A DNA stretch of 64,000 nt from an uncultured Gemmatimonadota bacterium (GCA_951812955.1 OX638340.1:3456001-3520000), one strand, 5' to 3'. Shown: positions 46,815-54,145, counted from the first letter of the stretch. Translations and numbers: made by a program. The notes: generated from the sequence alone by a model not told the origin.

Positions 46815-49800
46815 CTACCAGTCTGAACTGTCAGGAACTCCCGGGCTCACGACAATCTCCAACCCCGGTTCAGGCAGCACGCGCCGGGCCGGTGGTCCTC
46901 CCGAACCGTTAATAACCCAGTCGTGCAGAAATCCGCGCACCTGGCCAGTGAAGCGGTCCAGCAGCAGGACCGCGGCGCGGTCTCCTTCTCGGTCCTGCGT
47001 CGCAACGCCTTCAGGCCCTGAAAGGGTGATCTGATGCAGTCTCTCCGGCCAATCCGCCCGGATAGGCAGGATGAAGTTGAAGCTCCCGCCCTCACTGTCG
47101 CCGAGCCGGTTCATGTCGAAGGACAGATTGAACACGACACCACCGTTCGCGCTTTCTCCCGAGAGCTGGTACGGACCACTGGTCTGAGGAACGACCGGTG
47201 GCGCGTCGACGACGAATGCCGGTTCCAGCACGAGGTCGCCGTCTTCGCTTACGTGGCCCCAGAGCAGCAGTGCCTTAGTGACTGGGGCAGCCGACGCGAG
47301 CCTGACGTCCTTGGCCTGACGCCAGCCCAGTGCCTTGCTGAAACTGTAGTATCCGATCCACTCCGGCTCGCAATAACTCATCAGGTCGGGCCGGCTGGGG
47401 GAGATCAATTGCTCATTCACGAAATCGTAACCCCATGCGCCGATGGATCCGTCACGGTTCGGGTAATTGCGATCCGGTCCGGCGGGTCCTCCGCACGGCG
47501 CATGGCGTAGAGACAGGTTATGGCCGAACTCATGCGCGATAACCGGGCCCTGCAGCACGCTCACGCTCGAGAATTCCTTGTTGAGCCCAAGGAAAGCCCC
47601 CCCTACGTAAGCGATCCCAAGCAGTCCGTTGTCCCCTTGGCGCCGGAAAACACCCATGTAATAGGTTTCCGGCGAGCCTTCCATGTTGCGGATCGATTCG
47701 GTCAGTGTAACGAGTTCCTCGCCGTAATCCCCCGTCGGGTCGTACGAAACAAATACCGGGTCGTGAACGCTCACCGTAACGTCGCCCACCGGAAGATAGT
47801 CGCGGGTTTCGCGCAGGAGCTCGCCGTCCGCGGTAATGGCGTTGATTTCCGTAAGTATGGACCGGTCCGGGTTCTCGTCCCAGAGGAAGGGAACGATCAT
47901 GATGTCGAAGGAAGACACCGTCCTGACGTCGACAGACAGGCGGCCCTCGGGAGGTATGCGCTGTGCTATCTCGAGCGCCGAGTCCAGGGTGCCGTCCGGA
48001 TCGATCTCCACGACCATCTCCAGGCCCGTCTCGATGACGGATCCGGGAATCAAGGCGTTGGAGGACAAATCCAGTACGCCCTCTTCGATCTGTTCCGGGA
48101 TACCGGCAGACTGGCCCGGAATATCAACCTCGTGGGCGACCGATCCGTTGTGATAGAAGGTAGCCCGGACCGGAGGTATGCTGATTCCCTCGTTGCCCTC
48201 TCTTGCGATGAATACGCGCAGCAGGGCTTCATCGCCTTCAATCAGGGGAACGGGATCACCCACCGACTGTACGGACTGCGTGAGGTATGCGTAGGAGTCA
48301 GCGCCGACGAGCGTAGGTTTTTCCTTCACTTCGACGGCAACCGCGCCGGAGCAATTGTTCAGCGTGTCCGTTTCCCCGGATAGCGCATCCACGCAAGCAC
48401 CGTAGTAGTACGTACCCACGGGGTCGGAAGCCGTCAATACAATCCACTCGTCGTCAGTCTCAGCAGCGTCAAGGCTGGTTACGTAATCCGTTCCCACTTC
48501 CGTGTCGCCGCTGGTGATCGTCGCGTCGGCGGACTGGTAATAGCGAAGCGTCGTCGATGAAGCTGCGTCACCGGCGCCCTGGTTGCGGACCGTCACGCTC
48601 AGCGTGAACGAATCCCCGACCTCGGGATTGTCATTAGATACCGTTGGCTGCTCGAGAACCAGGTCGGGACCGCTGACGGTCACCATGACCGCGACAGAGC
48701 AGTTGTTCGCGGTATCCGATTCCTCGGACAGCGGATCCACGCAGGCGCCGTAATAGTACGTGCCGAGTGTCGCGGGTGCTCTCAGGGAGATCGACTCGTT
48801 ACTGGTCGACGAGGCCCGGAGCGATGAGACGTAATCGGTGCCAATCTCCGTGTCGCCGGACGTGATCGTTGCGTCCGTCGATAGGTAGTAGCGAAGTCTT
48901 GTGGAGGACGCGTTACCGTCGCCCTGGTTGCGTACGATGGCACTTAGTCTGAAACGCTCATCGCTGCTCAGTGCGTCATCGCTTACTGTCGGCGATTCCA
49001 CGATGAGGTCCGGCGCGAGCACGACGGGAATCCGGACGGTCACCTGGAACGCCTGTCTCGCGGTCAGGCTTCCATCGTCGGCCGTAACGGTAATGGTCGC
49101 GTTGCCCGCGGACTTGCCTTCCACCGTCACCACGCTGCCGGCCGTGGCCGCCGTCGCGACCCCCGCGTCCGACGTGGCGGCCGAGAAGGTCAGCCGGTCG
49201 TTATCGGGATCGCTGAAATAGGAGCTTACGGTAATTCGGACCGATTCGCCCACGTCAAGGTTCCGGGACGGGATCGCACCCTGTGCGACGGGCGCCTGGT
49301 TGACCGGTTGCCCCACGGTAACCGTCACGGCGACGGAACAGTTGTTTTGCGTATCGGATTCATCGGACAGCGCATCTACGCAGGCGCCGTAGAAGTACGT
49401 ACCCGTATTGGCAGGCGCATCCAGGCCAATCGATTCATCGCTGGTCTCAGACTGATCCAGGGAGGTCACGCGGTCCGTGCCGATTTCCGTATCGGTGGCC
49501 GAGATCGTGGCATCTGCGGAGCGGTAGTATCGCAGCGTTGTCGAGGACGAAGCGTCGCCGTCGCCCCGGTTGCGTACCGTCGCGTTAAATGTAAACCGGT
49601 CGCCCGGTTCAGGACTGCCGTCGCTGACAGACGGCGATTCCACGATGAGATCGGGACGTGGAATGACGGAACGCCGCACAGTGACGTCTATCTGTTGACC
49701 GGCGGTCAGGCTGCCGTCGCTGGCCGTGATGGTAATCGTCGCGTTCCCGGCCGACTCGCCCCTGATCGTCACCACGTCGTTCGGAATCAAGGCGGTTGCG

Positions 49801-52381: not shown

Positions 52382-54145
52382 TTATTCGTCCGGACAGCCT
52401 GCTATTTCGCTCAAGTCCCCAATTTCGCTCAGCCAGTCCTGGAATACCTCGGATAGCGGTATGCATAGTTGGGTCCCATTCACGTGCAGGCTTTCCAGTG
52501 TGAGACGCGCAAGCGACTCGGGCAGAGGTCCGGTGAGTTCCGGGTTCGAGGCCACGTTGAGCCGAGTCAGATTGCGAAGCCCGCCGATTTCCGGCGGCAG
52601 CGATCCCATTAACCGGTTGGCCGATAGGTCCAGGTGGATGAGCGCTTGCAGTTGTCCGAATTCCGGGGGTATGGAGCCCGATAACGCGTTATCTCGAAGG
52701 ACAAGCATTTCGAGTGCTTTCAAAAGTTCAAGCTCCGCGGGAATGTGCCCGGTCAACTGGTTTCCACCGAGATTGAGTATTTCGAGACGCCCTGACAGAC
52801 CGATTTCCGCAGGTATGGTTCCCGTAAACTCGTTTCCTTCCAGGTTCAACGCTTCCAAAATGGTCAAATGACCGATTGAAAGCGGAATACTGCCGGAAAG
52901 ATGATTTTCGCCGAGGTTCAACACCGTGAGACCAACGAGTTGCCCGAGTTCATCCGGAAGCGGTCCGCGGAGACCGTTCCCGTTCAACTCCAGCCGGGTG
53001 ACCATGCCGTCGGCGTCGGTCGTGACGCCATACCACGCGTGGAGCGGGGCGTTGGACAGCCAGTTCGCCTTCTCTGTCCAGTCCGGTCCGCCCGTTGTAT
53101 TGTAAAACACAATGAGCGCATTCCGATCCGGACTTGAAACGACCGTTGTCACGTTGAAGTGCTGCGTGGCGCTCAAACCGTGCGGGTCGGTCGCGCTGAC
53201 CGAAATCGTCGCTCTGCCTGCCGATACGGATCGGATGGTGGTCCGTTCTTCCTTTGCTTCGACCGTGGCCACCTGGTCGTCGCTGGATACAGCCGTATAT
53301 TCCAGCTTGTCGCCATCCGGATCGAGAAACGCGCCGGATACGTCCAGCTCCTCCGCCGGTCCTCCCTCGACCAGCCTTAGATCTGCTATCATTCCCACCG
53401 TCTGTGGCCGGGTGTTCATCCCCGTCCCCATGACAGTGACGCGTATGGACTGCGTGGCGCTCAGGCTATCCGGATCGGTTGCCGTGACCGTCACGGTCGC
53501 TTCGCCGGTTGACACGGCACGGATGGTCACGTCGGCGCCGGATGCCGCCGCCGTGGCTACCTGGTCGTCGCTGGATTCCGCGGAATAGGTCAACTCGTCG
53601 TCGTCCGGGTCGCGGAAAGCGCCGGTAACGTCCAGCTCTACCGATACTCCGATTTCCGTCAGCACCTGTGGCGCGATCTCGCCCACTGCTTCCGGGGGCC
53701 GGTTTGGAACGGGCGCCGATACGGTCACCGTTATCCCGTTCGAGACGTTGCCCGAACGGGCGGTGATCCGGGCAGTGCCGTTGCTCACGGCCGTAACCAG
53801 ACCACCGGAACTCACGCTGGCTACACTCATGTTGCTGGATGACCAGGACACCGTCGCCCCAGTGATCGGACTGTTGTTCTGATCGTTAACCGTGGCGGTC
53901 AGTTGCGCCGTCTGACCCAGGGCGGTCAGCGTCACGGCAGCCGGTGTGATCCGGATACTGGTCGGTACAGCTTGTACCGGTGGCGGCGTTGGAGGCGGAG
54001 TGGGTGGTGGCGTTGGTGTTGGAGGCGGTGGAGCAGGCGGAGTGCCCGGCGACGTCGGTGTCGTCGAACCACCTCCGCCACACGAAACCAGTACCGAAAA
54101 GACCCATAATACGATAACTGATGAGATCAAGCGGGACGCATGCAA
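52382..54145 (-). CDS. LRR lipoprotein with Big_2 and two cadherin-like domains (upstream gene of the CARDB-metzincin gene; probable operon)
   Basis: MHASRLISSVIVLWVFSVLVSCGGGGS lipobox. Pro-rich linker PPAPPPPTPTPPPTPPPTPPP. Big_2 domain (VSWSSSNMSVASV...). Cadherin-like units NRPPEAVGEIAPQ.../NTRPQTVGMIADL.... N-cap ALIVFYNTTGGPDWTEKANWLSNAPLHAWYGVTTDADGMVTRLEL. ~9 plant-type LRRs. C-cap ...GTQLCIPLSEVFQDWLSEI...C. The stop lies 71 bp upstream of the next gene's start. Confidence 0.85.
   Translation of the reverse strand: MHASRLISSVIVLWVFSVLVSCGGGGSTTPTSPGTPPAPPPPTPTPPPTPPPTPPPVQAVPTSIRITPAAVTLTALGQTAQLTATVNDQNNSPITGATVSWSSSNMSVASVSSGGLVTAVSNGTARITARSGNVSNGITVTVSAPVPNRPPEAVGEIAPQVLTEIGVSVELDVTGAFRDPDDDELTYSAESSDDQVATAAASGADVTIRAVSTGEATVTVTATDPDSLSATQSIRVTVMGTGMNTRPQTVGMIADLRLVEGGPAEELDVSGAFLDPDGDKLEYTAVSSDDQVATVEAKEERTTIRSVSAGRATISVSATDPHGLSATQHFNVTTVVSSPDRNALIVFYNTTGGPDWTEKANWLSNAPLHAWYGVTTDADGMVTRLELNGNGLRGPLPDELGQLVGLTVLNLGENHLSGSIPLSIGHLTILEALNLEGNEFTGTIPAEIGLSGRLEILNLGGNQLTGHIPAELELLKALEMLVLRDNALSGSIPPEFGQLQALIHLDLSANRLMGSLPPEIGGLRNLTRLNVASNPELTGPLPESLARLTLESLHVNGTQLCIPLSEVFQDWLSEIGDLSEIAGCPDE

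Follow-up and report, generated by a model that had tools for sequence, protein, structure and literature searches.

StcE and TagA are the described metalloproteases that most resemble the enzyme considered here; StcE cleaves host mucin-type glycoproteins, and TagA is also a lipoprotein. In sponge symbionts, surveys have counted the repeat domains of leucine-rich repeat (LRR), cadherin and Calx-beta proteins and have proposed roles in adhesion or in evasion of phagocytosis (PMC8163846; PMC9531527; PMC12993501). One large survey reported no collagenases (PMC8163846), and the function of these repeat proteins has so far been largely guesswork. Our search of the literature on LRR or M66 metalloproteases in sponge symbionts returned no description of LRR arrays fused or linked to a metzincin. 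Here we analyze two adjacent genes, termed A and B, in a 64,000-nucleotide stretch (hereafter the window) from an uncultured Gemmatimonadota bacterium (GCA_951812955.1, OX638340.1:3456001-3520000). Gene A encodes a putative LRR lipoprotein, and gene B a putative lipoprotein with a long immunoglobulin (Ig)-like stalk and a C-terminal metzincin module. We consider it probable, with appreciable reserve, that A and B are split and remodelled members of an exported LRR-protease lipoprotein family and that they act together, a cooperation first proposed in a preliminary description of the locus.

The preliminary description had placed a metzincin at the C-terminus of gene B. The zinc motif and the fold are indeed present, but they belong to a three-domain module of 494 amino acids (aa) rather than to a bare catalytic domain. 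An AlphaFold2 model of this module, made with 41 homologs (predicted local distance difference test (pLDDT) 89.7, predicted template modelling score (pTM) 0.90), consists of a beta-sandwich, an alpha/beta catalytic domain and a second beta-sandwich and contains a complete metzincin catalytic fold by structure comparison; in Foldseek, the catalytic domain finds those of fragilysin and ADAM proteins, and the best structural match of the module is StcE (PDB 3UJZ). Across 42 homologs, the module residues H256, E257, H260 and H266 are invariant, as is M307, which lies 41 residues past the third histidine in the family pattern DLM[ST]YC. The glycine at position 8 of the zinc motif (HExxHxxGxxH) is replaced by serine in gene B. 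Among 120 homologs, this position is occupied by Ser in 65, by Asn in 31 and by Gly in 9, and the window paralog P1618 has Gly. Such substitutions would suit a module that serves as a non-catalytic binding domain, making gene B purely an adhesin; given the invariant zinc ligands, catalytic glutamate and methionine and the complete fold, we regard this as improbable in the extreme. At the level of sequence families, Pfam Peptidase_M66 (PF10462) scores 20.7-22.8 bits against a cut-off of 20.6 and aligns over profile positions 196-252 of 306 only; it is matched by 41 of the 42 module homologs (best E 1.4e-10) and is their most frequent family hit. A profile search of the PDB with the module did not retrieve StcE at E<=1 and gave only weak matches to M12B zinc motifs. 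From sequence and model together, we conclude that the metzincin of gene B is intact and a remote relative of M66.

A link between this module and LRR arrays emerges from the family as a whole. In our architecture survey, open reading frames (ORFs) were called in 81 fetched loci (denoted by L numbers) and scored with the domains of genes A and B. An LRR array is fused directly ahead of the module in ~99 of the 110 module-bearing ORFs, usually in the order Big_2-LRR-module. One such protein is P1618, whose module is 45% identical to that of gene B over 494 aa. By Rosetta-stone logic, fusion in ~99 of 110 genes supports a functional link between LRR and protease. Gene A fits this pattern at its ends: apart from its orthologs, it most resembles the N-terminal parts of fused proteins (35-40% identity), and it stops at the LRR C-cap cysteine, the exact point at which fused proteins run on into AYLTQAVQS.... 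The CARDB-module architecture, on the other hand, is confined to gene B orthologs (L001, L004, L013, L024, L082 and the contig-truncated L002 and L003); orthologs of gene B are 77-94% identical to it. In a rough neighbour-joining tree, they form a monophyletic group that branches within the LRR-fused members, so the CARDB array has probably replaced the LRR. Separately, L074 encodes a 521-aa lipoprotein (9905..11470) that consists of a leader and the protease module alone.

The fused form also bears on whether the LRR might control the protease rather than direct it. An AlphaFold2 model of the last LRR block of P1618 together with its module is confident (pLDDT 89.1, pTM 0.84) and has no low-confidence linker, which suggests rigid packing of the LRR against the module. 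Rigid packing would agree with gene A acting as a regulator or inhibitor that keeps the gene B protease latent. Metzincins as a rule require some form of latency control, and the module model shows no obvious pro-domain. A permanent LRR fusion in ~90% of members, however, is easier to reconcile with targeting or scaffolding than with a removable inhibitor, and we consider latency control very unlikely.

Genes A and B are also tied together by position. Gene A orthologs (60-73% identity) lie directly upstream of gene B orthologs in all five genomes in which this could be checked (the window, L001, L004, L024 and L082), with A-to-B gaps of 44 base pairs (bp) in L001, 52 bp in L004, 64 bp in L024 and 71 bp in the window; the two genes are adjacent in L082 too. 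Two outer-membrane genes found upstream of A in the window lie downstream of B in L001, L004 and L013, and the A-B pair is kept together despite this rearrangement of the flanking genes. No terminator- or promoter-like site was detected in the 71-bp spacer by consensus scan, and the RNA fold of the spacer is no better than that of shuffled sequence (z -0.44). Candidate promoter and terminator sites outside the pair are listed in the table; consensus matches in such scans arise at a background rate and count for little in Gemmatimonadota. The preliminary description had put forward an operon of two minus-strand genes about 71 bp apart. We found ORFs at the expected coordinates, on the same strand, with a short and clean spacer and with the pair recurring in L001, L004, L024 and L082, which gives the operon sequence-level support and makes co-transcription plausible. 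The lack of co-occurrence in relatives, which that description had named, along with a promoter or terminator mapped between the genes, as counter-evidence, was not observed. We also considered that A and B might be a single gene split by frameshift, assembly error or read-through, and rejected this because the two lie in different frames, so that read-through cannot fuse them, because gene B opens with a separate conserved leader, and because the split is present in four other assemblies. In the window, the genes upstream of A occupy 54272..55600, one coding for an outer-membrane beta-barrel protein and the other for an unknown protein of 235 aa, within a stretch of low GC content (0.474, 54001..56000).

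Taken as a split pair, the locus could work as follows. The usual family member is one polypeptide with a Cys-GKDSPT leader, a Pro-rich tether, Big_2 domains, a plant-type LRR array and a C-terminal StcE-like (M66-like) module of 490 aa. In the split form, gene A would retain the leader, the Big_2 domain and the cadherin-like and LRR part, stopping at the LRR C-cap, and gene B would combine its own leader with an 11-domain Ig-like stalk in place of the LRR and the protease module. Both genes would be transcribed from a promoter upstream of A, and both proteins would be exported and lipidated, at Cys22 (A) and Cys23 (B). The stalk of gene B could hold the active metzincin tens of nanometres off the cell, where it would cleave extracellular, probably host-derived (glyco)proteins. 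The gene A LRR would then provide in trans the target recognition that most relatives carry as a covalent part, and it may either dock on the gene B module or bind the same substrate independently. The surface complex of a binding and a catalytic subunit suggested in the preliminary description would be one, conjectural, form of such cooperation.

Several observations weigh against this reading. The likeness to StcE is remote (14% identity), and the Pfam M66 match spans the zinc motif only, at threshold. The lipobox of gene B, LFTC, is non-canonical, with Phe at -2 and Thr at -1 against the pattern [LVI][ASTVI][GAS]C, and the substrate of its protease is something that we infer entirely. No LRR, CARDB or Big_2 gene lies within 10 kb of the stand-alone module lipoprotein in L074. 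Since the five pair-bearing genomes form one clade, their adjacency amounts to about one independent event, and pairing is no family-wide rule, as only 9 of the 99 fused genes have an LRR-only same-strand neighbour within 400 bp. LRR-only paralogs are, moreover, common in the window genome. Seven family members lie in the window itself, with three same-strand pairs among them (P1618/P535, P2410/P551 and A/B), and all three pairs consist of a giant gene with a small LRR-only neighbour. P535 is 69-77% identical to aa 2-616 of P1618 (6894..8740), its upstream neighbour, and is therefore a recent partial tandem duplicate of the P1618 N-terminus; small LRR genes can thus arise as by-products of duplication. 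Likewise, P2410 has no protease and stands beside P551, so the pairing of a small LRR gene with a giant is not protease-specific.

Much of this would follow if A and B were independent tandem paralogs, which became neighbours through tandem duplication, partial duplication and domain shuffling and are perhaps co-expressed, each acting alone, as surface adhesin or protease, without forming an A-B complex. Besides the three window pairs, the P535 duplicate and the protease-free P2410/P551, this alternative draws on the 26 of 99 fused genes that adjoin another module-bearing gene, on the presence of at least 11 copies, mostly in tandem, in one genome, and on the Big_2 and Big_9 domains common to A and B (39-50% identity); gene B, furthermore, carries its own Ig-like array, a putative binding array. 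The single clade, P2410/P551, the P535 duplicate and the lone L074 protein make tandem paralogy a strong rival. It accounts less readily for an A-B pair that stays joined while its flanking genes move, for a gene A that ends precisely at the fusion boundary, and for an LRR-only gene located immediately upstream, in all checkable cases, in the one clade to have lost its fused LRR, compared with a background of 9 in 99. We therefore treat independent paralogs as a serious possibility that falls somewhat short of probable, and retain the cooperating split pair as the preferred explanation.

The module is widespread. A word-indexed search with it returned at least 1204 proteins, of which the few named homologs are annotated as hypothetical or as 'M66 family metalloprotease' and come from Gemmatimonadota, including Candidatus Palauibacter. 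An exhaustive profile search at E<=1e-30 gave 2123 representative clusters (50% identity); the module is nearly always C-terminal, in proteins of 900-2700 aa, and 527 stretches were confirmed in species-representative genomes. We regard the family as a large and fast-evolving one of exported, probably outer-membrane-anchored lipoproteins, found in Gemmatimonadota and in further lineages known largely from sponge microbiome samples. The metagenome-assembled genomes (MAGs) that carry the module are labelled Gemmatimonadota/Longimicrobiales, Latescibacterota, Acidobacteriota, one Pseudohongiella and others, mostly the first three phyla. In the chromosome-level MAGs of L037, L070 and L078, the module resides in Acidobacteriota and Pseudohongiella chromosomes, which hints at cross-phylum transfer; the Pseudohongiella copy, the sole N-terminus inspected among these three, has no lipobox. 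One 3.07-Mb genome (OY282356.1; L050, L052 and L054) contains at least 11 module-bearing genes, many of them in head-to-tail tandem.

These distributions frame the question of what the protease is for. Several of the module-bearing MAG series are documented sponge microbiome bins (PMC9531527; PMC10469786), and Palauibacterales are abundant in sponges (PMC10469786). The BamA protein of the window shares 79-80% identity with proteins labelled 'Gemmatimonadetes bacterium', and a sponge association of the source bacterium is probable. The protease could instead scavenge nutrients in a general way, digesting environmental or particulate proteins for uptake, with LRR and CARDB arrays that merely tether the substrate. 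Members of Palauibacterales, a related order of Gemmatimonadota, are found in sediments and soils as well (PMC10469786), few homologs can be assigned to a source biome and no host target is known, all of which would suit such a role. It sits less well with the sponge-derived MAG series, with a closest solved structure that is a host-glycoprotein protease, and with the reported enrichment of LRR, cadherin and Calx-beta proteins in sponge symbionts compared with seawater (PMC8163846; PMC9531527). On balance, we find scavenging rather unlikely and continue to favour a host-directed split pair.

Coordinates and supporting evidence for the individual features are given in the table. The start of gene B required a choice between candidates at 52364, 52331 and 52310 (minus strand), the first of which gives the longest ORF. 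We favour 52310 because the L001 ortholog starts with MALIARLG..., six bases past an in-frame stop; counter to this, a gene caller picked the long form in a 94%-identical ortholog. Exact-sequence look-ups of gene A, of gene B (1849-aa form) and of the window BamA matched no record. The two proteins share a leader type, as first described, each having a hydrophobic segment and a Cys followed by GGGGS (A) or GKDSP (B) and a Pro/Thr-rich linker. The LVSC of gene A is a canonical lipobox, and gene A orthologs carry the leader motifs LVSCGQGSPT and LAACGGGGSS. The Cys-GKDSPT of gene B is kept across paralogs and related genomes: the predicted lipid-anchor Cys and the strongly conserved GKDSPT that follows it were observed, for example, in the window (52230..52245) and in L005, L009, L018, L020, L023, L031 and L074. 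GKDSPT is absent from other putative lipoproteins of the window (44451..45164 and 43856..44449). A K-D pair after the Cys resembles the lipoprotein surface-export signal of Bacteroidota, and GKDSPT may be a sorting signal in Gemmatimonadota.

Both proteins open with a Big_2 domain that the preliminary description had not listed, and the two copies are 39% identical. In gene A, the Big_9/PKD region that follows is 50% identical to the second Big_9 domain of gene B. The LRR part matches Pfam LRR_1 and LRR_8 and follows the plant-type consensus LxxLxLxxNxLSGxIPxxLGxL. A pattern search identified six repeats at 24-residue spacing (aa 385-528), followed by a Cys-containing cap; a seventh repeat (aa ~529-552) was seen by eye only and was not matched by the pattern.

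The stalk of gene B differs from its first description, which listed about ten consecutive CARDB domains followed by two cadherin-like domains directly ahead of the metzincin. Pfam and a motif listing instead give 11 Ig-like domains (one Big_2, eight CARDB and two Big_9) in the order leader, Big_2, five CARDB, Big_9, CARDB, Big_9, two CARDB and C-terminal module. There are thus two cadherin-like domains as stated, but they are located after the fifth and sixth CARDB units and interrupt the CARDB series. CARDB (PF07705) scores above the gathering threshold in eight stretches (E 2.4e-80, 265.7 bits), and the end motif reported earlier, GTY[YF]YGACVD..NNCS, does close all units (aa 289, 406, 523, 640, 756, 970, 1183 and 1299). 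The cadherin-like domains are better named bacterial Ig (Big_9) domains, since Big_9 scores 32.5 bits against a cut-off of 23.6 and Cadherin_4 (21.6 bits) stays below its cut-off of 25.1. A tandem repeat at 50665..51674 (period 351, 2.9 copies, 81% matches) covers CARDB units 1-3, and this DNA identity of 81% marks them as recent tandem copies. Gene B orthologs in L004, L013 and L024 have 7-10 CARDB and 2-4 Big_9 domains, and the one in L024 is without Big_2; this variation in repeat number implies that stalk length changes quickly.

Table. Features of genes A and B and of related genes in the window (positions counted from the first nucleotide of the window).
Feature	Description	Position	Strand	Basis
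Gene A	putative LRR lipoprotein, 587 aa	52382..54145	-	ORF; TTG start, TAA stop
Gene A leader	aa 1-22; lipobox LVSC, Cys22, then GGGGS and Pro/Thr-rich linker	54080..54145	-	read from sequence
Gene A Big_2	aa 62-142	53720..53962	-	Pfam PF02368, E 4.8e-21
Gene A Big_9/PKD	two cadherin-like domains, aa 146-335	53141..53710	-	Pfam Big_9 7.9e-11, PKD 1.3e-7
Gene A LRR	plant-type; N-cap, 24-residue repeats, Cys-containing C-cap ending ...AGCPDE	52385..53134	-	Pfam LRR_1/LRR_8, repeat register
A-B spacer	intergenic, 71 bp (gene B start at 52310)	52311..52381	-	ORF limits
Gene B	putative lipoprotein with CARDB/Big_9 stalk and StcE-like metzincin, 1831 aa	46815..52310	-	ORF, Pfam
Gene B leader	aa 1-23; LFTC, Cys23, then GKDSPT	52242..52310	-	read from sequence
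Gene B Big_2	aa 65-148	51867..52118	-	Pfam Big_2
CARDB units 1-5	aa 202-785	49956..51707	-	Pfam CARDB, unit list
Big_9 domain 1	cadherin-like, aa 786-884	49659..49955	-	Pfam Big_9, 32.5 bits
CARDB unit 6	aa 885-999	49314..49658	-	Pfam, motif listing
Big_9 domain 2	cadherin-like, aa 1000-1098	49017..49313	-	Pfam, motif listing
CARDB units 7-8	aa 1099-1330	48321..49016	-	Pfam, motif listing
C-terminal module	494 aa (aa 1338-1831); beta-sandwich, metzincin catalytic domain, beta-sandwich	46818..48299	-	AlphaFold2 model
Zinc-binding motif	HEFGHNLSLRH, aa 1593-1603	47502..47534	-	sequence
Probable Met-turn	DLMSY, aa 1642-1646	47373..47387	-	invariant M307 of module
Promoter-like site	TTGTAA-17-TATCAT, AT-rich spacer, ~46 bp upstream of gene A	54191..54219	-	consensus scan only
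Terminator-like site	hairpin and U-rich tail past gene B	46731..46758	-	consensus scan and fold; weak
P391	Big_2-LRR lipoprotein	4168..5343	+	paralog comparison
P1618	single polypeptide: lipoprotein leader, Big_2, LRR array, protease module as in gene B	6894..11750	+	Pfam
P535	LRR-only lipoprotein	11907..13514	+	paralog comparison
P2410 and P551	giant Big_2-LRR protein without protease, and LRR-only lipoprotein, 29 bp apart	34537..43454	+	Pfam, paralog comparison

The leader and the Big_2/LRR build are common to the five further paralogs in the window, which lie at 4168..13514 and 34537..43454; P2410, at 2410 aa, is almost all LRR. Beside the family clusters are two regulators (14414..16807 and 30764..33259) that combine GAF, PAS, histidine kinase, receiver and DNA-binding domains in single polypeptides and share 52% identity. 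Of 82 related loci, 8 contain homologs of these, the one in L061 being 81% identical, and the regulators may control the surface genes. The window also encodes a 1153-aa Calx-beta protein (26693..30154), which may be another surface protein of the host-interaction type. A 1146-aa Calx-beta protein near the gene B ortholog in L002 (4208..7648) is likened to it by domain only.

Taken alone, the gene pair is unexceptional within a surface-protein family rich in paralogs, and the A/B arrangement is a new architectural variant of a family that is annotated in databases and functionally uncharacterised. Its wider interest is that the locus points to a large family in which plant-type LRRs are joined covalently to a zinc protease of the StcE type, with many copies per genome, spanning Gemmatimonadota, Latescibacterota, Acidobacteriota and at least one gammaproteobacterium. 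The idea that results is that LRR repeats may direct a protease towards glycoproteins of the host or the matrix, and A/B, as a rare split form, could serve to examine whether the LRR arm functions in trans. A more far-reaching and doubtful extension, which we advance tentatively, is that the plant-type LRR proteins of sponge symbionts are largely the targeting arms of StcE-like host-glycoprotein proteases shared horizontally across phyla, with A/B as a natural split that supplies the LRR in trans. If so, the pair would be a ready-made system for studying how LRR recognition directs a symbiont protease.

Compared with known systems, the family shares its domain types and its phyla with the eukaryotic-like repeat proteins (LRR, cadherin, Calx-beta) of sponge symbionts (PMC8163846; PMC9531527; PMC12993501). 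The catalytic fold of the gene B module is shared with adamalysin/ADAM (M12B) and fragilysin at 10-19% identity, whereas gene B has no disintegrin, Cys-rich or recognisable pro-domain, and the flanking beta-sandwiches of its module are absent from those families. As in StcE/TagA (MEROPS M66; PDB 3UJZ), an Ig-like beta-sandwich precedes the metzincin catalytic domain; unlike StcE/TagA, from which it differs at the level of 14% identity, the gene B module possesses an additional beta-sandwich at its C-terminus, follows LRR or CARDB arrays within the same protein across the family and has the motif glycine replaced by Ser or Asn in most members. The repeats of gene A, finally, are of the 24-residue LxxLxLxxNxLSGxIP type found in the plant-type LRR proteins XopL, XopAE and XopAC of Xanthomonas and the LRR lipoprotein LIC_11051 of Leptospira, whose NCBIfam models are the best NCBIfam matches of gene A, far under their cut-offs (57 vs 450-600 bits and 33 vs 1000 bits). 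In contrast to the Xanthomonas LRR type III effectors, gene A sets these repeats in a lipoprotein with Ig-like domains.

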